In this document: positions 631-29,397 of the stretch, piece by piece
How the letters are laid out: each line of letters begins with the position of its first letter
How positions within the stretch are numbered: position 1 is the stretch's first letter
Program-made: the position numbers and the translations under genes
Virus record (IMG/VR): IMGVR_UViG_3300010331_000033
Span: 1-30,177 of that record
DNA from: a virus
Taxonomy: Duplodnaviria; Caudoviricetes
Direction: 5' to 3' (one strand)
DNA length: 30,177 nt
Notes under the pieces: generated by a model
Seen by the model: the letters and a program-made list of their open reading frames with translations, nothing else
The model's database searches: none
What the model was told of the DNA's origin: nothing

Positions 631-3423
631 TTAGATTATTACACCCATTGCATCAACCCACATACTGCCAGACGTTGCGCCATTATATGTTTCTTTTTTT
701 AATGTCGATAAATTTAGAAACTCATCCCCTTTTGATAAAATGTAGTAAGGTGGACGCACATAAGCTGCGCGTCTATACGGAACGAACCGAACTTCATTTG
801 CCGAACTCCATGCCGCTACATTGTTAACATCATCGTAGACGTAGCGATAAAATACCCCTCCGAACACACAAACATCATTTATGCTCATGCTTGCGGATGG
901 TAAAGCGGATGCGCGATAGAAGACATTTAGGTACGGAAGATTAGTGCTAGTAGCGCTTGTATGCTTTAGCTGATACCAGTTTCCTGAATTCATTATCACA
1001 ACGATATCTAGATCCATTAAAGTTATACCCGTAATCGTTTTTCCTCCAGCGATGAAAGCCTCAAAGGTGGGCTTTAAAGCGATGAAATCGGCAGATAAAA
1101 TATAATATCTGTGTGTGTTTCCGTTTATATACTCCATGACGGTGTGACCATTCAGAATAGTTTTTGCGCATCCTTCGATTTTGTAATCTACATTAAGAGA
1201 CGTCAAAGCTGGATTGTAATTATCCGAAATATCAAGGCTTAACCCTGCTAAATCATAATACGCCTTTCCAAACTCCAATTTCCCTTGTAATCCATATTTT
1301 GCGGGAATAGCGCATTTCATCTTTGGATATGCTGCATAGACAGTATTTTCCTTCATCGCGATTAAGTCAGGGATATAGATTGATTTGTTTAATATTGCAT
1401 TTGCATTTGGGGAGATAGCTATCCTAGTTTCTAAACCTTTGATTCCAGTGTTTCCCACGATTGATATATCGTGAGCATCTCCATTCGCGCAATTACCAAA
1501 AAATTTATCTATTTCAAATTTATTGTTAGACACAATCGTATTACTGCCAATACCCCTAAAAAAGTATTCTGAGGTTGTACGCATAATTGCTGGTAAATCA
1601 ACATAAGCTGCTCGGTCTGCTAGCGTGCAATTTCTAATAGTATTCACACTAAAAAGAAATTGTTGCTCAGTTCCGTCTACACTGTCTGATTTATTTTTAT
1701 TAAATGCAGCGCATAAGTCAATAATATTCCCCACTACGTTACATTCTAAAAATAAATAATTTGTTATGTAATAGAAGAATTCAATATAACAATTTGATAT
1801 TATTGTACTAGAGACAGCACCCTCAAACAGGCAGGATTCACCAGAAAATGAGTATTGAAAATTGTTGTAACTATCATTGTCTCCTGACATATAACACATA
1901 TTAAATACTCCATCCTGTATATTTGCGTTTGATAATGATCTTTTACAAAAGAAGTTACATTCAAAAAATCTTGGAGACGATACGAGGTTAACGTTAAACA
2001 CGGTAACCCAGAAAAATATAGTAAAACAACCAGACATTCGTAAGCCATATAGTTCACCTATTCCGTTTGTTTTAAAAAGTGTTTTTGTCGTCTTATTTAT
2101 TCTGTCACCTACAAATCCAACTTTTTCGATATTCACGCGTGTTTTTGCGTCTGCAACGATTATTCCATCTTGGCTGGAAAAATAGAGGCATGATAAATTA
2201 ACCTGATAAGCTAATGTGTATATATCATCAAGGTTCATCAATTTGTTTTCTCCTTTAAGACAAAAACGAGAAGGGGCTGTGAATTGCGCCACGTTCCATT
2301 TTCCGCGAGGAATAAACACATATGTTGACATAAGATTTGACAGTGCAACGGCATTAAGTAACGCTGTACTGTTATCTGTATAACTTACGTCAGCATCAAA
2401 AAAAGTCAAGTCAACCCTGAAACAACGGAATGATCCTGCAAAAGATAGCGTATTTTTGAAACACTTTGAAGTAGGCATAAGGACTGTTTGCGCCCCCGTC
2501 AATATGCCATTTTTAAGAGACCCACCTTCGAACTGTAAAGCAGAATTGGCAGGCATTGTTATTGTTTCCCCTGCTAGATCATAATCATATTGAACGATAT
2601 ATATTGTGCTTGCATCGCTTACCATCGCCTGAATAAGTGTGTTAACTCCACCAACAATATTTTTACGTAGTCTTTTACGTGCTAGTCCGCTAAAATTAGA
2701 TGAACTATAAACCTTGTCTTTTAACTTTAATACAGCAGGTGCTCCTATTAATTCTAAATCCTCACCATCCGCGTTGTTTGTTACAGCACCTCCATTATTG
2801 AGTAATAAAAGTGTTTCAGACGATAAGTTCTCAGGAAGTATTGAGCCAGGAAGCACTTCAGTTGATTTATTATCAATATAACTTCTCAAGCTATTTGTAA
2901 CATCATCTACATATTTTTTAGGGGTTGCCGCTGATGGCAAATTAGGGCTTAGAGGAATTAAGGGTGATTTTGTAAATGTATTTAACTCTGTAAAAGTATT
3001 ATTCAAGGCTTTATCCGCCTTTTTATCATCAAGAATTTTGCCTTGACCAGCATCTAATAATTTTCCTGGTATAGTTTCAAGGAGATTATTAATAATTTCA
3101 GGCGTCTCTATTGCGACATATTCATATACACTGTTATTATATACCACAGAACAATGCCAACCAATTTTAACAACAGGTGTACCTTGAATCCAGGTAACAG
3201 GTCCCGCCGTAATGAATTTATAAAAACCGCTTTTACCTGGTAAAGGTGCTGAGCTATTATAATTTAATGGGCCCAAATATCCACCTTGAACTGCACCTAT
3301 ATGAAAAAACAAAGACTCGACAATTTCTATTTCTAAATCTTGATGTTTTTGAGGATCAATCCGGTTTTTGTCATTAGGGAAAATGACTGATCTGATTTTT
3401 GTAAGTAACTGTTCTCGATTCAT
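631..3423 (-). CDS. Tailspike / receptor-binding protein with probable beta-helix depolymerase domain
   Basis: 930 aa; AATPKKYVDD fibre motif; DNSTALLNAV...VFIPRGKW pectate-lyase-3-like cap followed by Asn/Cys-rich beta-helix-like rungs; located at the end of the tail module. Confidence 0.75.
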   Translation of the reverse strand: MNREQLLTKIRSVIFPNDKNRIDPQKHQDLEIEIVESLFFHIGAVQGGYLGPLNYNSSAPLPGKSGFYKFITAGPVTWIQGTPVVKIGWHCSVVYNNSVYEYVAIETPEIINNLLETIPGKLLDAGQGKILDDKKADKALNNTFTELNTFTKSPLIPLSPNLPSAATPKKYVDDVTNSLRSYIDNKSTEVLPGSILPENLSSETLLLLNNGGAVTNNADGEDLELIGAPAVLKLKDKVYSSSNFSGLARKRLRKNIVGGVNTLIQAMVSDASTIYIVQYDYDLAGETITMPANSALQFEGGSLKNGILTGAQTVLMPTSKCFKNTLSFAGSFRCFRVDLTFFDADVSYTDNSTALLNAVALSNLMSTYVFIPRGKWNVAQFTAPSRFCLKGENKLMNLDDIYTLAYQVNLSCLYFSSQDGIIVADAKTRVNIEKVGFVGDRINKTTKTLFKTNGIGELYGLRMSGCFTIFFWVTVFNVNLVSSPRFFECNFFCKRSLSNANIQDGVFNMCYMSGDNDSYNNFQYSFSGESCLFEGAVSSTIISNCYIEFFYYITNYLFLECNVVGNIIDLCAAFNKNKSDSVDGTEQQFLFSVNTIRNCTLADRAAYVDLPAIMRTTSEYFFRGIGSNTIVSNNKFEIDKFFGNCANGDAHDISIVGNTGIKGLETRIAISPNANAILNKSIYIPDLIAMKENTVYAAYPKMKCAIPAKYGLQGKLEFGKAYYDLAGLSLDISDNYNPALTSLNVDYKIEGCAKTILNGHTVMEYINGNTHRYYILSADFIALKPTFEAFIAGGKTITGITLMDLDIVVIMNSGNWYQLKHTSATSTNLPYLNVFYRASALPSASMSINDVCVFGGVFYRYVYDDVNNVAAWSSANEVRFVPYRRAAYVRPPYYILSKGDEFLNLSTLKKETYNGATSGSMWVDAMGVII

Positions 3424-13926: not shown

Positions 13927-14263
13927 CTAGTTCAGCGTATGCTATGCAAGTTCTACCATCATGCTTTGTGTAAACCTCTTTAATAATCAGCTTGTCACCC
14001 TTGACAGTTACCTTTTCGACATGACCGCTATCTACTGATAATTTCAGACCGATAAACTGGTCTATATAAAATTCAATTGAATAGTTGTATGGCCGATATT
14101 GGTATTTATCATTCCCGATATTTACAGGATCATTGGGTGAGTTATAGAGTACTAAAGTTTCTTGTGGGATGAGTGAGCCCGATGGTATCCAGATAGCCTC
14201 ATCACCAAACACCGCCGCTGCGGTGGAGAATACGATTTTCTGGATATCATCGAAGACGCTCAT
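13919..14263 (-). CDS. Head-tail joining protein (head closure, lambda FII-like)
   Basis: MSVFD...FG-EA-W...DG-T pattern; position after the capsid decoration gene. Confidence 0.6.
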   Translation of the reverse strand: MSVFDDIQKIVFSTAAAVFGDEAIWIPSGSLIPQETLVLYNSPNDPVNIGNDKYQYRPYNYSIEFYIDQFIGLKLSVDSGHVEKVTVKGDKLIIKEVYTKHDGRTCIAYAELDD

Positions 14264-16805: not shown

Positions 16806-18248
16806 TTAAAGTATATTAGGGTCAGGTTCTAAAGGTTCAGGGGCGATCATGATACTTGAGAATGTAATGCCGGCATCGGCCAACAACTTACGCTCAGCAA
16901 TTATCTCGTCTAAAAATTCCTGCGGATCACGGCCATCTTCACGAACTGATTCACTCCATGTTGTCAAGCCTGCTTGTAGTTGCAATACACGGGCATTTGT
17001 CTCTTTAACTGGATCTAGCTGTTGCACTCTTGGTGCTGTCCAGTCTGTTGCGTTACAAACGACCTTAGTGGATGATAATCCGGTCATAATAACGGCATCC
17101 ATAAACCACCGCCAAACATTCACACATACCTGCGGTACCATCATGTTGTACTGCCAGTTGCGGAAATTGGGTGTGATATCAATTTTTGCCATACGGCCAC
17201 TGGTGAAATTGACATTGGAATAGTCCATTGTCAACATCTCATAAGTGATGCCATAAGCGGCAGCAATGCCTTGTAAAATCTTTTTTGAATATTCAGCGTA
17301 ACCATCAGCAGCTGGAGGTTTTGAAAATTCTATTGTTTCACCTTCACCAAGATCCTCAATTATTCCAGGTTCAAGGGATTCGAGATCTGATGAAGCCACT
17401 CCTTCACGTCCAGTCCTGAAAGCACAGAAAGCAGCGGCAGCTTTTTGTCTTACCAATTGTGCGTCTTCATAATTGGAAAAGTCAGACATCTTAATGAAAG
17501 AGGAAATACCCATAGGCACGCCACGCACTTGACTAATCCTAAGAAGTTCAAAAGGATGGATGATATCATTAACAGAAAAGTATTGAGATTGCAAAGAGCT
17601 CAATTTACCTGTCATATCGGTAGGGTGTTGTGGCCATATCCAATAACCTATCGTAAGACCAGCCTCATCAAATTGCACACCAAGACGGGCAAACCCTTTA
17701 TCATTAATACCATCCTTGCAATGATCCAACTGATCACCTTCAAGAACTTGAAGTTTTATTGGTAGAGGATTTTCACGGGTAGGGGTGACACGTCTTCTTA
17801 CGATTAAGCAATCACCTGCTTCGGCTATCTTAGACATCACAATACGTTGCAATCCGTAAAAGGTATTCTTACCGTTCCAATCGCAAGCAGTTGTCTCAGC
17901 CCAATCTTTCCAGATCGCTTTTATTTTCTTTACCTGAGATTTTGTGCCTACGGGTGCCGGACGAATACCCTCACCGACAGTGTTGTTGGCAATGGCATTA
18001 ATGGCACGTTTCGCCCATCCGTTATTTCTTACAAAATGACGTGAGCGATTGCGGAGTGTGATAAATCCTTGGGATATTTCGAGATTAGGACCGGCAGAGT
18101 TAGCTCCTTTAAAGGATTTTCCCCGTCTACCCATAGTGGCAGCTTCGTAAGACCTTCGTGCATTAAAGCGAGAAAGGGCAGCTTTCGGGGAAAAATAGGC
18201 TATTGACCTATCAACAAGGTTTAATTTAGAAGCCTCTGCCATACTCAA
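16806..18248 (-). CDS. Portal protein, lambda family
   Basis: LRNRSRHFVRNN, VGEGI, LGVQFD--G---GYW, QVRGVP, DYSNVNFTSGR and LDPVKE motifs. Confidence 0.92.
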   Translation of the reverse strand: MSMAEASKLNLVDRSIAYFSPKAALSRFNARRSYEAATMGRRGKSFKGANSAGPNLEISQGFITLRNRSRHFVRNNGWAKRAINAIANNTVGEGIRPAPVGTKSQVKKIKAIWKDWAETTACDWNGKNTFYGLQRIVMSKIAEAGDCLIVRRRVTPTRENPLPIKLQVLEGDQLDHCKDGINDKGFARLGVQFDEAGLTIGYWIWPQHPTDMTGKLSSLQSQYFSVNDIIHPFELLRISQVRGVPMGISSFIKMSDFSNYEDAQLVRQKAAAAFCAFRTGREGVASSDLESLEPGIIEDLGEGETIEFSKPPAADGYAEYSKKILQGIAAAYGITYEMLTMDYSNVNFTSGRMAKIDITPNFRNWQYNMMVPQVCVNVWRWFMDAVIMTGLSSTKVVCNATDWTAPRVQQLDPVKETNARVLQLQAGLTTWSESVREDGRDPQEFLDEIIAERKLLADAGITFSSIMIAPEPLEPDPNIL

Positions 18249-18423
18249 TAAGCTTTCTTCTATTAGTTGGTGCAGGGAATAACTCAGCTTCCATCATGTT
18301 CAATATCTGTTTCATCTCAGACAGGTTGCGGTATGTGATTTCTTTATCAGCATACTTAACCGTTGTAGCACCTAGTGCAATAGCGTCCTTTAATTTCTGA
18401 TATTGTTCTGATGTATAGGTCAT
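18226..18423 (-). CDS. Head-tail adaptor (lambda gpW-like)
   Basis: L--AI--G---V-Y----ITYR---EM pattern; overlaps the portal start. Confidence 0.85.
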   Translation of the reverse strand: MTYTSEQYQKLKDAIALGATTVKYADKEITYRNLSEMKQILNMMEAELFPAPTNRRKLIEYGRGF

Positions 18424-18527: not shown

Positions 18528-18556
18528 AAAAAAAAAGCCCCAATAATGTGGAGCTT
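18528..18556 (-). terminator. Intrinsic terminator after HTH gene (copy 1 of duplicated terminator)
   Basis: Minus strand AAGCTCCACATTATTGGGGCTT followed by a long T run. Confidence 0.7.
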
Positions 18557-18576
18557 AAAAAAAATATTTAAAAAAA

Positions 18577-18876
18577 TTACAGTTGAAGTATGCCAAAAAT
18601 CCTTTCTAATATTTCAAATGGGATGCTTCGTTTTCCTGAAAGGAAGTTTTTAAAATTGCTATAATCATAATCAATATCCTTAGAAAATTGATTAACGGAT
18701 AAGCCCTCTTCGGCTAATTTGTTTTTGATAGCTATACGGATGTCTTTTTTTACATACGCCTGCTTAGTCTCAAAATTGAAACCTACATTGTAGCCCGGGC
18801 AAAGTTTTTGAAGTGCAAGAAGCTGTTCGCCTGTTTTGCACTCTGAAATTATTTTTATCAATTCTATTGTTTTCAT
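18577..18876 (-). CDS. XRE/Cro-type HTH regulator, candidate Aca-like repressor
   Basis: C-terminal IKNKLAEEGLSVNQFSKDIDYDYSNFKNFLSGKRSIPFEILERIF; last gene of the island. Confidence 0.75.
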   Translation of the reverse strand: MKTIELIKIISECKTGEQLLALQKLCPGYNVGFNFETKQAYVKKDIRIAIKNKLAEEGLSVNQFSKDIDYDYSNFKNFLSGKRSIPFEILERIFGILQL

Positions 18877-18896
18877 AAAATTCTTTTTTATATTTG
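18867..18896 (+). promoter_or_regulatory. Bacteroidota-type sigma-A promoter for the plus-strand RNA
   Basis: TTG (18867-69) - 19 nt - TATATTTG (18889-96) fits the -33/-7 consensus TTG-N19-TAnnTTTG. Confidence 0.6.
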
Positions 18897-18916
18897 TGGT
18901 GTCCGGATGCCGAAAG

Positions 18917-18946
18917 GCACTAATCAGACCAATCTGGAATTGAAAT
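18917..18946 (+). CRISPR. Solitary 30-nt type I-B/III-like CRISPR repeat (repeat A)
   Basis: GCACTAATCAGACCAATCTGGAATTGAAAT; ends in the canonical 8-nt Cas6 handle ATTGAAAT. Confidence 0.6.
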
Positions 18947-18996
18947 ATTAGATGTAATTATCTGGACAATTCGCTGCAAAGCGTGGATTAAAACAA

Positions 18997-19015
18997 AATT
19001 TCTACTATTGTAGAT
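18997..19015 (+). CRISPR. Solitary type V-A (Cas12a) crRNA handle
   Basis: AATTTCTACTATTGTAGAT equals the conserved AATTTCTAC-loop-GTAGAT mature Cas12a repeat. Confidence 0.85.
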
Positions 19016-19037
19016 TGTGATTTACTTCACAGAATTT

Positions 19038-19066
19038 AAGCAGGGCTTTAAAACCCTGCTTTTTTT
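19038..19066 (+). terminator. Intrinsic terminator of the plus-strand RNA
   Basis: AAGCAGGG-CTTTAAAA-CCCTGCTT followed by a T run. The U-tract is on the + strand although all protein genes are on the - strand. Confidence 0.8.
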
Positions 19067-19235
19067 ATTTCATTTCGACAATTCTAATCCAAAACAAATC
19101 TTCCAATTTGCATTTTTCAACCTCGGCGTTTCTTTGTATTACAGCCTCTTTATGAGATGCCGCAGTGATTTCTTTGGTGTCCAGTTCGTTTAGCTGGCGA
19201 TCTTCGTAAATTAGCTTGAATTTGAGATCTTTCAT
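19065..19235 (-). CDS. Small hypothetical protein (56 aa), candidate Acr/host-takeover factor
   Basis: Not in track: MKDLKFKLIYEDRQLNELDTKEITAASHKEAVIQRNAEVEKCKLEDLFWIRIVEMK; starts 10 nt after the upstream stop. Confidence 0.6.
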   Translation of the reverse strand: MKDLKFKLIYEDRQLNELDTKEITAASHKEAVIQRNAEVEKCKLEDLFWIRIVEMK

Positions 19236-19245
19236 GATCTTTTTG

Positions 19246-19704
19246 TTATTTCAATAAAGCTTCAGCTTCTTCGGCTTTTGAGGCGTATTTTTTATTCAGC
19301 TCTTCTATTCGATTATTCAGCAATTTAACAAAAGGAACAATTCCGACGCGGGTAAATTTTGTAATAGGCAGATTAATGTTTGATTCATCGTCTTTTAGCC
19401 GAAATTCTTTATATGTTTTGTATTTGCCAGTGTAAATATCTTTTTCGCAGTCCCAGATTCGCCCATCATGCTCTACAGCAATAGCCCAAAAATTTGAATC
19501 ATCTTCATCCTTTTGAGGCTCAATGTCGGAAAAAGGTTTTACATACATTGTAAAAAAAGATTTGCTTAAGTCGTAACCATCAAGCATTTTCGCAAATGCA
19601 GGAATAATTTCGTTTTCAGTTTTTTCAATAAGTTGATTAAAAATAGCGGTTCTTTTGTCGCTGATTTGTGCAGCTTCCTGAAATAATTCATCAAAAGTTT
19701 TCAT
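19246..19704 (-). CDS. Acidic hypothetical protein (152 aa), candidate Acr
   Basis: Asp/Glu/Lys-rich; no family recognised; directly downstream of repeat B. Confidence 0.6.
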   Translation of the reverse strand: MKTFDELFQEAAQISDKRTAIFNQLIEKTENEIIPAFAKMLDGYDLSKSFFTMYVKPFSDIEPQKDEDDSNFWAIAVEHDGRIWDCEKDIYTGKYKTYKEFRLKDDESNINLPITKFTRVGIVPFVKLLNNRIEELNKKYASKAEEAEALLK

Positions 19705-19759
19705 AATATAAAGTATTAATTTTTTTGCCTACTCTGTTTAGCGGTTTTCGGCATCCACG

Positions 19760-19789
19760 CTTTAAAATCCAAGATGGTCTGATTGTTTC
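19760..19789 (-). CRISPR. Second solitary I-B-like repeat (repeat B)
   Basis: GAAACAATCAGACCATCTTGGATTTTAAAG aligns ungapped to repeat A at 21/30 positions (core AATCAGACCA---TGGA-TT-AAA). Confidence 0.5.
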
Positions 19790-19817
19790 CCCGTAAAGCC
19801 GGTAGGACAGCATTAAA

Positions 19818-19961
19818 CTATTTTACTGAAATGTGATCAGAATCAGAAACGAAGTTTTTAAGCTGAGCTTTAAAGATGCTGATTGCTTCGTTTTTACTAC
19901 GTGCATTAACTTCGCGTGAACTAAAAGTAGTTGATACTTTGTAAAATTTAATAGTTGCCAT
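19818..19961 (-). CDS. Small hypothetical protein (47 aa)
   Basis: Not in track: MATIKFYKVSTTFSSREVNARSKNEAISIFKAQLKNFVSDSDHISVK. Confidence 0.55.
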   Translation of the reverse strand: MATIKFYKVSTTFSSREVNARSKNEAISIFKAQLKNFVSDSDHISVK

Positions 19962-19973
19962 GACCTTCGAGTA

Positions 19974-20180
19974 TTAAAAGTTTTTTACTAAATTAAATCT
20001 ATCAGCTATTTGACCTGCTACTGTGATACATTTTCCTTTGTAGGATACTTCACCGTCTTTTATAAAGACGCGATCATTTCTTTTCGCTCTTACTACTACT
20101 ACGATGATACCATTTTCTTCAGAAGCAAGACAGTAAGGGATTTCGCTGTTGATAATTTCAATAATTTCAGTTGTTTCCAT
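19974..20180 (-). CDS. Small hypothetical protein (68 aa), candidate Acr
   Basis: ORF track; second gene of the island operon. Confidence 0.6.
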   Translation of the reverse strand: METTEIIEIINSEIPYCLASEENGIIVVVVRAKRNDRVFIKDGEVSYKGKCITVAGQIADRFNLVKNF

Positions 20181-20198
20181 TGTGGTGTATATTTTAAA

Positions 20199-20390
20199 TT
20201 AAAATTCAAACATAAAATCATATTGCTTTTTAGCGGCTATTTTTACTTCTTCAGATTCGCCGAATTCATTAAATATTGATTCGAGTACTGATTCAAATGA
20301 AACGAATCCTTCTTCATCGCCATTTGATATTACAAATGATTCAACTCTACTTTGAATTCTTGATCTTGTGATAAAGTCTATTGTTGTCAT
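20199..20390 (-). CDS. Small acidic hypothetical protein (63 aa), candidate Acr
   Basis: First gene after the island promoter; Glu/Phe-rich. Confidence 0.6.
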   Translation of the reverse strand: MTTIDFITRSRIQSRVESFVISNGDEEGFVSFESVLESIFNEFGESEEVKIAAKKQYDFMFEF

Positions 20391-20432
20391 TGTCGTGGTT
20401 ATTAGTAGTTGTTATTGTTCTTAATCATGTAT

Positions 20433-20464
20433 CAAAGATAGTGTCAAATGTGACATTATCCAAA
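20433..20464 (-). promoter_or_regulatory. Consensus Bacteroidota promoter with palindromic operator in the spacer
   Basis: Minus strand TTTG (20464-61) - 20 nt - TATCTTTG (20440-33); inverted repeat TGTCA-N4-TGACA at 20442-20455. Confidence 0.8.
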
Positions 20465-20507
20465 TAAATAGAGTTAATAAACGTTAACTTTATTGATTAT
20501 TTTACAT

Positions 20508-20535
20508 AAAAAAAGCCCCAACAAATGTGGAGCTT
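20508..20535 (-). terminator. Intrinsic terminator at terL stop (copy 2 of duplicated terminator)
   Basis: Minus strand AAGCTCCACATTTGTTGGGGCTT plus T run; nearly identical to 18528-18556. Confidence 0.7.
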
Positions 20536-22406
20536 TATCTATCCCAGAAGCTTCCTTTTCGGGGCCTCTTAGGTTGGTTTTCAGTATGATCCTCAACGGT
20601 TGGATTGTCTATTTCCTTTTTCGGGATAGGCTTGGCATCCGATACCATACCCATAGCTTTAAGTTGTTCGGGCTTCTTCCTGTCAAGTCCGGCAATGGTA
20701 GCAGCGGCACGGGCATATATCCTACAGTCAAGGGGCTCATTACGTTCATACTTCTTCACCCATTTACGTTTAGCAGGTATCCAGTCCTCACCGGTCAGAC
20801 CTTCGAAATAACGGTTATCATACTGAGGAAAATGGCAGTAACAAGGCGGGAACGTACCATCGGTACAGGGTTCAATGGTCAGCCATGAATACAATTCTGA
20901 CTTAAGCAATGACACACCGATATTCCATTGTTTAAATTTCCCGATCTTCTTACCATTTTTTGTGTAGTCAACCTGACGGGGAGGTGCAACGGATAAACCA
21001 AGTGAGTCAACACCCTTGATAGGGATAACACGGCTACCGTGATACTTACGACAAAAGGTATGAACCTCAGTGGTATTGTAACCGCTGTCAATGGCCATCC
21101 TCAAAAGCTGAAGCTCTACACCGTCCGTTCTGGTCCATGTCTCATCGACAACCTCAGCAAGCTGACTCCATACATCAGGAAGGGTGGTATTTCCCAACAA
21201 TACCCTGAAATCAATTGAATAACTGGATTTATCTGAACACCATCCGACAATCTCTAACTCAATACGATCCTTTTGAATATCGACTCCACTGGTGAGAAAA
21301 CAAACATCTCCAGGTACCTTGTTGAGAGGATATGATTCTCTCCGGTTATATACATTTTGCCATGCGGGGGCCTCACCAGAATCCTCAATGACCTCACCCA
21401 ATACGGTATTTATGAATGTGGTCATTCTGGATGGGTCTTTAAGGGCTTTTTCATAGTCCTCAGCAATGCCAGCCCATGAGTACCATCCAAATGGTGAATA
21501 AAACGAAGACAAATGAAATCCAATTATATCCTCACTGACTTTTTCAGGACATAAGGATATCCATTCACCCTTAGCCATCATTTCAGTTTTATGCCTTTCC
21601 TCAATCAACTCTTCGCAATTGGGGCATTGCATTTTGGCCGTTTTCGGAAATCCTTCATCCCATTTTAAGTTTTCAAAAACAAAAGTATGATATACACCAC
21701 AATGGGGGCAAGGTACCTGATAATAATTCTGGTCAGTTTCCAAAAACTCACGCTCGATGATGGAGGTGTCTTTTATCGTTGGGGTAGAAATGATAAATAT
21801 TTTTTTCTTGGCAAAGGTTCGGGTTCGGGCTATTGCAAGTTCTACGGGTGATCCCTCACCGTCCAAATTATATGGATATCCGTCAACTTCATCTAAGAAT
21901 AGATTTTTTATTGGAACGGACCGTAAACCAACTGGCGTATTGGCACCGGCCATAAGAAGAATTCCACCTGGAAAACTTTTTTGTGTTATAGTATTCTCTC
22001 CACTTCTGGATTTTTTATCTGAAACTTTTTTAGAAAGTGACTCTGATGAGTTGATCATTGGATCAATACGCATCTTTGAATTTCGCTCAACGGTCTTGTC
22101 TGTTGGTTGGACCATTAACGTAGGTGCCGGTGTGCTATCAATTATATACCCGATCCAGTTATTTCCAGCTTCTGTCAATCCAAGTTGCGCACCTTTCATT
22201 ACAACAACTTTTTTATACGGGAAATAGACAGAAAGAGAATCCATTATCTTACGAAGATATGGAGTCCTAGTTGTCCTCCATGGCCCATACTCTGATGCAG
22301 CCATCGAAGACAGTATTCTATTCTCATCTGCCCATTCCGATACTGTCAGACGGGGATCAGGCGTAAAACCTGCTAGATAGTCTAATATGGGAGGGTTACC
22401 GGTCAA
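20535..22406 (-). CDS. terL: Terminase large subunit, lambda gpA family
   Basis: TVSEWAD, RTPYL, KGAQLGLTE (Walker A), LFLDEVD (Walker B), ISTPT, VPCPHCG, GVDIQ, IDSGY and NEPLDC--YA motifs. Confidence 0.95.
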   Translation of the reverse strand: MTGNPPILDYLAGFTPDPRLTVSEWADENRILSSMAASEYGPWRTTRTPYLRKIMDSLSVYFPYKKVVVMKGAQLGLTEAGNNWIGYIIDSTPAPTLMVQPTDKTVERNSKMRIDPMINSSESLSKKVSDKKSRSGENTITQKSFPGGILLMAGANTPVGLRSVPIKNLFLDEVDGYPYNLDGEGSPVELAIARTRTFAKKKIFIISTPTIKDTSIIEREFLETDQNYYQVPCPHCGVYHTFVFENLKWDEGFPKTAKMQCPNCEELIEERHKTEMMAKGEWISLCPEKVSEDIIGFHLSSFYSPFGWYSWAGIAEDYEKALKDPSRMTTFINTVLGEVIEDSGEAPAWQNVYNRRESYPLNKVPGDVCFLTSGVDIQKDRIELEIVGWCSDKSSYSIDFRVLLGNTTLPDVWSQLAEVVDETWTRTDGVELQLLRMAIDSGYNTTEVHTFCRKYHGSRVIPIKGVDSLGLSVAPPRQVDYTKNGKKIGKFKQWNIGVSLLKSELYSWLTIEPCTDGTFPPCYCHFPQYDNRYFEGLTGEDWIPAKRKWVKKYERNEPLDCRIYARAAATIAGLDRKKPEQLKAMGMVSDAKPIPKKEIDNPTVEDHTENQPKRPRKGSFWDR

Positions 22407-27807: not shown

Positions 27808-28578
27808 TTAACTTTTAAGTTTTAAAATTACCTCTCCCCCGTGATCGTATAACGTTCCTCGGAATTCACAAATACCATTCTTTCCGTTTCTTGGTGTGTA
27901 GTAGTCGCATTGAGATTTGCAACACTCTGATTTATCCCCCGCTGTACCCATTTCGCAAAAGCCGATTGTCTGCTGAATCATTTCCATACTCGAATTAAGG
28001 TCTATTATAGGCTCAATAGATGCAAAGGTTTTGAATCCTGCATTATGAAGCTTTTTCATAGCCTCGATACGTTCAGCGTTGGTAGATGCGTTTGGCTCCA
28101 ATTCATCGTGGCCGGTCAAGGTAAAGCCGAAAGCAAGAAGGTGCTTCTTTGGCTCGTAATTCCAGATTGTTTGGTTTTCGTTCAATTCACGGATTAAAGC
28201 ATCTATATGCCAATCTGCTCGCTTCGTTAGGAATTTAACGGGCACATCGTTAATTAGGCACAACCTTGCTGCCTGTTGAGTAAGAAGTGTTGTTTCTGGT
28301 AGAAATGGATCGGATGTAAACGTAAAGAATAGACCGTGTTTTTGAAGTTCAAGAAGGTTTAATTTCAGTTCCTTTTCAAAGATCTTTAAGGCGTCCGCTT
28401 CATCCTTAAAACACTTTTTCAAAGTAGGTATTAACCCGCCCATTACATGACCTAAAACGCCTTTCTTGCAATAACAGTAGGAACAGTCATTTGAACATCC
28501 TACATAGAAATTACAAGCCCATTCTGCATATTCCCCAGCAGGGCCTTTTGGTTGATATATCGCTTTTCCTTTATACAT
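27808..28578 (-). CDS. Radical SAM protein with atypical Cys-rich C-terminus
   Basis: CSNDCSYC = CxxxCxxC; FTSDPF, LTK, EPNAS---RI and SIEPI motifs. Confidence 0.8.
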   Translation of the reverse strand: MYKGKAIYQPKGPAGEYAEWACNFYVGCSNDCSYCYCKKGVLGHVMGGLIPTLKKCFKDEADALKIFEKELKLNLLELQKHGLFFTFTSDPFLPETTLLTQQAARLCLINDVPVKFLTKRADWHIDALIRELNENQTIWNYEPKKHLLAFGFTLTGHDELEPNASTNAERIEAMKKLHNAGFKTFASIEPIIDLNSSMEMIQQTIGFCEMGTAGDKSECCKSQCDYYTPRNGKNGICEFRGTLYDHGGEVILKLKS

Positions 28579-29080
28579 GATTTTCTTTGATTAAAGTTTC
28601 GTCAAATTCCCAAAAGCTAAGTTTTCCTTTAGCGGGTATAGGCTTTTCAAAAAGGATTGGATTTCGTAAAACCCAATTGTATGTTATCTTTGGGTTTTTG
28701 CCTTCTGAAACAGCTTTCGTGATTTCAAATGATTCTCGAATCTTCTGAACATCTGTTTTATTTTGATCCGCCCATATACTTGTGTGATTGATAACGCAGT
28801 CCACTATTTCAACACTTCCAATAATTGAACCAGTTGGTAGGCTTTCAAGCCATCCCTTTGTTTCAGGAAATATCTTATAAAGTGAAGGGATTATATCGTA
28901 TAAATACTTTATAAACATATTCCCATTCCATGATTTTGCGGCTGCATGAATCAAAACACGACCACGAAAATTAGTTTTCCATGTACGGTTTTCAATATCC
29001 TTGAATAATATTACATTGTCAATTTTCAGGCCTTCAACTATAAGTGACGCCCAAGGTTGTTTTTCTGTTATTGCTTTCAT
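28571..29080 (-). CDS. ASCH domain protein
   Basis: MKAIT-KQPWA-LI, KDIENR-W-T-FRG-VLIHA and KGKL-FW motifs. Confidence 0.9.
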   Translation of the reverse strand: MKAITEKQPWASLIVEGLKIDNVILFKDIENRTWKTNFRGRVLIHAAAKSWNGNMFIKYLYDIIPSLYKIFPETKGWLESLPTGSIIGSVEIVDCVINHTSIWADQNKTDVQKIRESFEITKAVSEGKNPKITYNWVLRNPILFEKPIPAKGKLSFWEFDETLIKENHV

Positions 29081-29397
29081 TATACAAATCTTTTATATTT
29101 CGGGTTTGTTTTCCTTTTTTCAACCTTATCTATTGCCATTTCAAGAAGGTTTTGATGATGCAAACCGAATAAACTTGCAAGGTGTGTTACGGTTGCATAT
29201 AAATCCGAAATTTCGTCCTTTAAGTGCTCTTCGCATTCATTAGACTTTCCAAAATGTGGAACCCGAATATATTCTTCAAAAGCTTCAGTCATTTCTTCAA
29301 ATTCTTCTTTGACTTTGTGATATCGTGAAAGTTTTACTGTTCCAAAATTTTCGTTAAAAACCTCAATTGCTTCCACTTCTATGCTAGTGTTATTCAT
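29080..29397 (-). CDS. MazG-like nucleotide pyrophosphohydrolase
   Basis: KVKEEFEE...LKDEISD acidic motif and K---R ending. Confidence 0.7.
   Translation of the reverse strand: MNNTSIEVEAIEVFNENFGTVKLSRYHKVKEEFEEMTEAFEEYIRVPHFGKSNECEEHLKDEISDLYATVTHLASLFGLHHQNLLEMAIDKVEKRKTNPKYKRFV

Follow-up and report, generated by a model that had tools for sequence, protein, structure and literature searches.

A candidate polyvalent RNA decoy chaining CRISPR-repeat mimics in an accessory cassette of a probable Bacteroidota phage

In the DNA of a virus of the class Caudoviricetes (IMG/VR virus record IMGVR_UViG_3300010331_000033, positions 1 to 30,177; this whole stretch of 30,177 nucleotides is referred to as the window), an AT-rich island between the genes terL and gpW carries look-alikes of type I-B, I-C and V-A CRISPR repeats. 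These are chained on the plus strand within 95 nt (18921–19015), opposite to the strand that carries the open reading frames (ORFs) of the island. Judged from the sequence, it is reasonably likely that they belong to a single RNA of ~165 nt that serves as one polyvalent decoy against several CRISPR-Cas systems, and that forms the clearest part of an accessory cassette of a likely temperate Bacteroidota phage. A preliminary description of this DNA had compared the interval with operons of anti-CRISPR (acr) and anti-CRISPR-associated (aca) genes, and had mentioned three solitary repeat mimics within it. The mimics are real, but they are chained and lie opposite the ORFs rather than being solitary; the earlier ones were given without coordinates. 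The strongest evidence now concerns the RNA, which was a mere side feature of that description.

Repeat mimics and a predicted small RNA

Reference array repeats were taken from Bacteroidota genomes, typed by their neighbouring cas genes and aligned to the whole window. The I-B references came from genomes G143 and G239 (with Cas7/DevR, Cas5b and Cas1b), G236 (with Cas1b) and G082 (not typed); for I-C, Cas8c, Cas5c and Cas7 lie next to the arrays of G055 and G106; Cas9 accompanies the arrays of G100, G038 and G006, and the array of G083 was typed only in part. The V-A label rests on the SRUFinder table rather than on a cas12a-linked array, and all five entries of that table with the 19-mer concerned are assigned to V-A. 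The best window match of all four I-B references falls at 18921-18946, with a score that none of 100 shuffles of the island reaches. This I-B mimic (18921..18946, plus strand) is identical to the G236 array repeat at 22 of 24 positions. All three I-C references match best at 18981-18994 (0-1 of 100 shuffles), within a shortened I-C mimic (18970..18994, plus strand) that consists of a 3-4 bp hairpin and a 3' tail, and that matches the 3' ends of three array repeats at 13 of 14 positions. Both V-A references match best at 18994/7-19015 (0 of 100 shuffles), where an exact 19-nt direct repeat of type V-A (Cas12a) is found (18997..19015, plus strand). The V-A label is further based on a 38-copy Flavobacterium array, whose repeat ends in 21 nt that are identical to the window here (PMC5395568, Table 4). 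The core motifs of I-B, I-C and V-A arise in 4, 2 and 0 of 1,000 shuffles, respectively, and each is present once in the 43.7-kb phage record (G256) that contains the 30.2-kb window.

Among Bacteroidota genomes, the 14-nt 3' end of the I-C repeat is present in 22 of 121, and a strict I-C pattern with the short spacing of the window in none of 201. One host-genome locus (L035, G108:C15) has a full and a degenerate V-A repeat ~470 nt apart. The mimics do not form a CRISPR mini-array, since no direct repeat family lies inside 18899-19068 among the 20 largest of the 30 listed, and no cas family was detected in a subset of ORFs comprising 29 in the window and 18 elsewhere in the record. Three further candidates were set aside. 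A II-C mimic at 19015-19031 showed a likeness that was reached by 50-100 of 100 shuffles, and is reread as the usual hairpin that follows the V-A repeat. A possible resemblance between the 5' GCCGAAAGGC hairpin and an I-B repeat of Myxan type is not retained, and an invertible segment formed by the inverted repeats I1 and I2 was ruled out, these being explained by RNA motifs shared on opposite strands.

The mimics fall within a predicted small RNA of ~165 nt (18899..19068, plus strand) that is antisense to the operon of small ORFs. Upstream is a predicted promoter of Bacteroidota type (TTG..TATATTTG; 18867..18896, plus strand), which overlaps the start codon of a helix-turn-helix (HTH) gene, and at the 3' end is a hairpin resembling an intrinsic terminator (19038..19068, plus strand), with no T-tail on the minus strand. 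The RNA is more stable than expected (fold z -3.85; one of 200 shuffles is equally stable). A 9-bp stem (18900-18908 with 18960-18968; 18900..18968, plus strand) is predicted to enclose the I-B mimic, and the sequence after the I-B handle is partly paired within it. Between the I-B handle and the I-C module are ~24 nt, and the tail of this module directly abuts the V-A repeat with no spacer between them. The position after the V-A repeat, where a guide would be expected, is occupied by a hairpin (19016..19031, plus strand; p 0.003 against shuffles of the 24-mer).

Related RNAs in other phages

Further sequences of this kind were sought by scanning viral loci with the V-A 19-mer, which covered 119 of an estimated 170 loci, this phage not being among them. 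In 29 of the 119 (11 of 55 flank families), the 19-mer is accompanied by a second repeat type no more than 100 nt away on its own strand, and this is I-C in 26 loci, I-B in five and II-C-like in two. In the controls, a second type was found in none of 1,169 distal windows and on the opposite strand at one of the 119 loci. A metagenome search for an I-B end together with a V-A repeat gave six loci, which are this phage, four copies of another RNA and a third kind. Stricter viral patterns returned this phage alone, and another scan added one phage with a lone I-C repeat.

The organization of these composite RNAs resembles that in the window. For example, L049 and L129/135/151 are colinear with it, with I-B inside an enclosing stem followed by I-C, V-A, a hairpin and a terminator, and an equivalent of the enclosing stem is predicted in L037/39/41/49/106/129/178/180. 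Ten of 11 composite-RNA families have a -7 promoter motif upstream, compared with 22 of the 55 families overall. In 17 I-C modules, 16 of which start with GTC, a stem before the 3' tail is kept with eight different stem sequences, and the stems have a mean of 5.0 bp against 1.9 when shuffled. Of 13 composite RNAs, nine have a hairpin in the 24 nt that follow the V-A repeat; among real spacers, 9 of 69 form one. Relatives of the composite RNA are present in about ten other phage groups. No Rfam family matched at its cut-off in 12 composite loci, the L049 RNA has no homologue in GenBank phages, and the composite I-C and V-A pattern was absent from all 351 genomes of one family, so that there is no host-matched case.

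Several of the viral loci show other arrangements of modules. A clearer II-C repeat start lies beside the V-A repeat in L036 (2471-2600, minus strand), L053 (1503-1626, plus strand) and L116 (1421-1525, minus strand), and the composite RNA of L036 additionally has an end like that of type I/III repeats and an I-B start. In L059 (~1440-1640, minus strand) a tandem duplicate of the I-C module precedes the V-A repeat, a case of module shuffling. L128 has a V-A repeat and then an I-C-like end behind a promoter of sigma-70 type, and composites may therefore occur outside Bacteroidota. In L080, L098 and L154, two V-A repeats lie ~20-40 nt apart (the second imperfect in L154), forming mini-arrays with very short spacers. 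L017 has a lone I-C-like repeat (~2500-2532, minus strand), and the neighbouring genes of this phage are unlike those of the island. Single I-B mimics stand behind a promoter motif in L161, L173 and L177, where ~17 nt downstream are shared across two differing contexts; this shared sequence is possibly a guide of the type carried by the Cracr RNAs discussed below.

A broader proposal is that polyvalent anti-CRISPR RNAs of 110-180 nt form a modular family that is widespread in Bacteroidota phages, each RNA presenting shortened repeats of several CRISPR types of both classes and disabling all of these types; the island would contain a three-type member joined to an operon of new anti-CRISPR (Acr) proteins. 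Modules would be added, dropped and reordered between phages, and the RNAs would be cut by Cas6b, Cas5c and Cas12a. This wider view is tentative, and somewhat doubtful in its full extent.

Decoy or guide

RNA anti-CRISPRs (Racrs) have been described that derive from solitary repeat units (SRUs) and contain a single repeat of one type (Camara-Wilpert et al. 2023, PMC10651486). In the account given there, Racrs of types I-C and V-A (RacrIC1 and RacrVA1-3) are inhibitory, and Cas6f cleaves RacrIF1, which sequesters Cas proteins in an aberrant complex. The island resembles these in mimicking repeats of known subtypes, and in being viral, intergenic and near small unknown genes, with no cas genes found. 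It differs in combining three types, from both CRISPR classes, in one predicted transcript with shortened repeats. Since the three repeat types lie within 95 nt, the RNA is not filed here as a solitary repeat unit, though it is proposed to be Racr-like. The SRU pipeline treated full matches within 100 bp as arrays, which it set aside, and required 90% identity (PMC10651486); under such rules composite RNAs may be undercounted. The SRU table of that study (2,193 rows) contains neither the identifier of this phage nor its I-B mimic.

In the decoy model, the small RNA would be transcribed from the plus-strand promoter, and each of the host proteins Cas6b, Cas5c and Cas12a would bind or cleave the module of its own type. 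The captured Cas proteins would be drawn off real CRISPR RNAs (crRNAs) into complexes that would be non-targeting because the guide positions are folded into stems or absent. This sequestration is modelled by analogy on what is described for RacrIF1, RacrIC1 and RacrVA1-3 (PMC10651486). The use of Cas12a in Bacteroides is treated in 10.1101/2023.07.03.547467.

Several observations weigh against this model, or against the extent of its support. The I-C module of the island is the most degenerate of the 17: it starts with TTC, its stem has 3-4 bp and its handle is changed at one position. The tail of this module is similar to the 5' end of a full V-A repeat as well, and the RNA may therefore have two working modules, not three. 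The V-A motif was found in just one of 201 Bacteroidota genomes, outside any array, and V-A hosts may thus be rare. For the viral counts given above, the search motifs of I-C and II-C were adjusted once loci had been viewed, and flank families are not proven to be independent lineages. RNAalifold on nine of the RNAs found two of 30 pairs changed on both sides, with an unfavourable covariation term, and in this alignment the window is out of register in the stems. Among the 92 ORFs that neighbour composite RNAs there is no match to a known Acr family; most of them are unknown, and five match HTH families.

The same chain could alternatively be a mixed-type guide array resembling the Cracr RNAs, with the pieces between the repeats being loaded and either repressing cas or toxin promoters or attacking rival phages. 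In a Cracr, the spacer matches a cas or creT promoter with at least 9 PAM-proximal bases, and Cracrs in arrays are reported always to target variants of the same type (Liu et al., 10.1101/2024.10.29.618823). Viral crRNA-like RNAs (crlRNAs) for V-A, I-B and I-C are known from that work, also as arrays, and the string 'Bacteroid' is absent from its main text. The island shares with Cracrs the multiplexing of phage crRNA-like RNAs in one unit, the combination of type I with V-A and the terminator at the end. It differs in that its chain mixes I-B, I-C and V-A, and in that no spacer for a cas or creT promoter was found in 16 CRISPR loci of Bacteroidota, among which the true host is absent. A guide could be accommodated in the ~24 nt between the I-B handle and the I-C module. 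The three pseudo-spacers (after the I-B mimic, after the V-A repeat and after the weaker mimic in the leader described below) have no above-chance match in 188 kb around these 16 loci, again with the true host absent; their longest matches, of 9-10 nt, were reached by 17-51 of 60 shuffles. A decoy is favoured over a guide because of these missing matches together with the hairpins that follow the V-A repeat, the lack of a spacer after the I-C module and the partial pairing of the stretch after the I-B mimic, and we regard a guide array as unlikely.

Other phage small RNAs that lie in anti-CRISPR islands and imitate host CRISPR RNA offer a further comparison. One of them, rAcrIIA1, is said to be a fusion of crRNA and trans-activating crRNA (tracrRNA) that acts against Cas9 only. 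The vsgRNA, from an anti-CRISPR island, is described as a crRNA-tracrRNA fusion that likewise acts against Cas9 only (10.64898/2026.06.01.729453). These RNAs differ from the island RNA in targeting Cas9, since its II-C likeness is not above chance. The accessible text of a review (PMC11656645) treats single repeats and mini-arrays only. No cross-type Racr or Cracr was found in the literature, which was covered mostly through non-subscription papers, and Cracr Table S2 and the vsgRNA tables might include some such loci.

The opposed operon and its phage context

On the minus strand, the island carries the five small ORFs that were listed in the preliminary description, encoding proteins of 63 (20199..20390), 68 (19974..20180), 47 (19818..19961), 152 (19246..19704) and 56 aa (19065..19235). 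Several had been called acidic, which holds for the 63-, 68-, 152- and 56-aa products (pI 4.3, 5.3, 5.0 and 5.8, respectively) and fails for the 47-aa product, which is basic (pI 9.9). The final HTH gene is also borne out. It encodes a 99-aa protein (18577..18876, minus strand) with a C-terminal Cro/XRE-type HTH (HTH_26, E 3.5e-4, 21.2 bits, slightly below the cut-off of 22) after a 45-aa N-terminal extension, and this protein, which has one other homologue at 70%, is a candidate Aca-like repressor. The five small ORFs have no Pfam or PHROG match at E<0.01 and no NCBIfam match at E<0.05; the 68-aa ORF has one homologue at 75%. For the 152-aa protein, 71 clusters at E<=0.001 make up an unnamed family; 69 members have no Pfam in common, and the family is without a match in other viral contigs, in 301 genomes and in GenBank phages. 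The AF2 model of the protein has a pLDDT of 91, and the best fold match has a Z of 5.1, with no Foldseek match at E<=0.001, which is not proof of a new fold.

Typical acr-aca operons consist of small genes behind one strong promoter with an inverted repeat, end with an HTH gene and lie among head genes. The island shows the same layout of small co-oriented genes with the HTH gene last, one predicted promoter containing an inverted repeat and a location among head genes. It departs from these operons in that no homology to known Acr or Aca proteins was found, and in the 45-aa extension and single known homologue of its HTH protein. No island ORF matched a known Acr or Aca in general family and structure searches, which included no dedicated Acr/Aca library. 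Because of this, the acr/aca reading is an argument from layout. The proposal that the five ORFs are Acr candidates is neither shown nor refuted by these searches, and has gained a better prior; that at least one of them is an Acr seems to us, as a matter of judgement, possible but rather less than probable. More tentatively than for the RNA, the operon would make five small anti-defence proteins, some perhaps Acrs, and the HTH protein would repress it at a palindrome in its promoter.

The promoter in question (TTG..TATCTTTG; 20433..20463, minus strand) is a predicted one of Bacteroidota type, and its motif, at 20463-20433, agrees with the -7 consensus of Bacteroides given in PMC4747536. The consensus promoter of the preliminary description is recovered here as a motif before the ORFs, although it is not above chance alone, arising in 446 of 1,000 island shuffles, and a sigma-70 scan found 9 sites where 10.1 were expected. 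It is supported by its position, not its score. Between its boxes lies a TGTCA-N4-TGACA palindrome (20442..20455), a candidate operator for the HTH protein, with two further copies in the 43.7-kb record (13993-14006 in the window and G256:1624).

These features raise the question of whether protein Acrs in an acr-aca operon do the main work, the RNA being carried along as a minor or decaying element in which only one or two modules are still live. The small, mostly acidic orphan ORFs, the terminal HTH gene, the palindrome inside the promoter and the degenerate I-C module are all consistent with this, and Racrs are reported often to adjoin acr genes (PMC10651486). It is made improbable by the absence of a match to known Acr or Aca in any ORF in the general family and structure searches, and by the exact V-A and 22/24 I-B repeats, which argue for upkeep of the RNA.

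The RNA could also be a sensor which, being antisense across the junction before the HTH gene, tunes the operon, so that cutting by host Cas proteins alters control. The promoter of the RNA does overlap the start codon of the HTH gene, and the stretch between the 56-aa ORF and this gene has no complete promoter motif on the minus strand, so that expression of the HTH gene would need read-through antisense to the small RNA. Such a role is nevertheless very unlikely, because related RNAs are found in varied gene settings that have no ORF in common with the island, and the antisense position is therefore not conserved.

The leader of the 152-aa gene contains a motif like that of the DUF805b RNA (RF02914; 19726..19761, minus strand). 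It is full-length and scores 33.4 bits, 2.2 under the Rfam cut-off of 35.6 (E 4.2e-7), and was alone near a cut-off when Rfam was run on the window. The motif is present in 52 of 151 Bacteroidota genomes, and in 3 of 10 homologues of the 152-aa protein the leader shows as an N-terminal extension. The copies viewed in host genomes (L216-L227) lie ~20-30 nt before start codons, and the window copy similarly adjoins one. It differs in having upstream a weak, degenerate stretch like an I-B repeat (19761..19784, minus strand), which is found in none of eight copies viewed; its score against the G236 repeat is 28, compared with 27 for the best of 100 island shuffles, and the remaining three I-B repeats give 13-18. 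The small RNA has a 5' hairpin that itself resembles the DUF805b motif at 20 of 24 positions. No paper describing DUF805b was found in the literature.

The island is flanked by a gene for a lambda gpA-type terminase, terL (20535..22406, minus strand; PF05876 E 3.7e-89, PF20454 E 4.8e-74), with GpA ATPase and nuclease domains, and by a gene for a gpW-like head-tail adaptor (18226..18423, minus strand; phrog_2545 E 6.5e-16). The earlier observation of ~2 kb of AT-rich DNA between them is borne out, the island having ~2.1 kb and a GC content of 32.4%, compared with 42.8% in terL and 43.4% in the portal gene (~43% in the flanks). The phage record encodes a lambda-type terminase and portal, a tail sheath and an integrase (PF00589). 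The same island is present in a 310-kb metagenome contig (L038), which suggests a prophage, and portal relatives (55-64% identity) are found in seven genomes, of which six are titled Bacteroidota, Bacteroidetes, Prevotellaceae or Tidjanibacter. From the integrase, this contig and the portal relatives, the phage is likely to be temperate with a Bacteroidota host. Two further regions hold possible counter-defence cargo, namely a run of radical SAM, ASCH-like and MazG-like genes (27808-29397 of the window, minus strand) and two DNA methylase genes outside the window (G256 35638-39781).

Terminator-like hairpins on the minus strand, 3' of terL (20505..20536) and at the end of the operon (18528..18556), form the two copies of a 28-nt direct repeat, 82% identical, that brackets the island. 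An empty site in L002 has one similar hairpin after terL, and the island may have inserted at a terminator, leaving one copy on each side. Among the seven genome loci, four have 119-214 bp from the last aligned terL codon to gpW and three have other cargo. The slot is empty in viral loci L002-L005, which form one group and keep a single similar hairpin, and it is filled by PcfK and PcfJ genes in L007 and a NYN gene in L022. Cargo before gpW in relatives consists of PcfK/PcfJ, NYN-domain or HTH genes (L007 3430-5135, L022 5541-6164, L025 5990-6604 and L006 1505-1831). The terL–gpW slot is thus a cargo hotspot that varies among relatives, which was the comparison proposed in the preliminary description. 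No ORF is common to the island and any compared slot in genome or viral relatives, and GenBank phages contain no DNA homologue of the island, giving short chance matches only. A reading of the mimics as inert remains of host CRISPR loci, picked up in an ordinary moron with proteins unrelated to CRISPR, might be suggested by the PcfK/PcfJ and NYN cargo of relatives and the commonness of the DUF805b leader motif, but is scarcely credible given three repeat types in fixed order from promoter to terminator, in several phage groups, with stems that are rewritten yet paired. The view of the interval as an accessory anti-CRISPR island is supported by its variable slot, its acr/aca-like layout and the repeat-mimic RNA inside it. 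The island has two predicted, opposed transcription units rather than one.

Known RNA anti-CRISPRs each act on one CRISPR type. If the decoy model is true, blocking systems of class 1 and class 2 together with an RNA of 165 nt would amount to a compact counter-defence of broad range, and would help to explain how Bacteroidota phages cope with hosts of differing CRISPR types.

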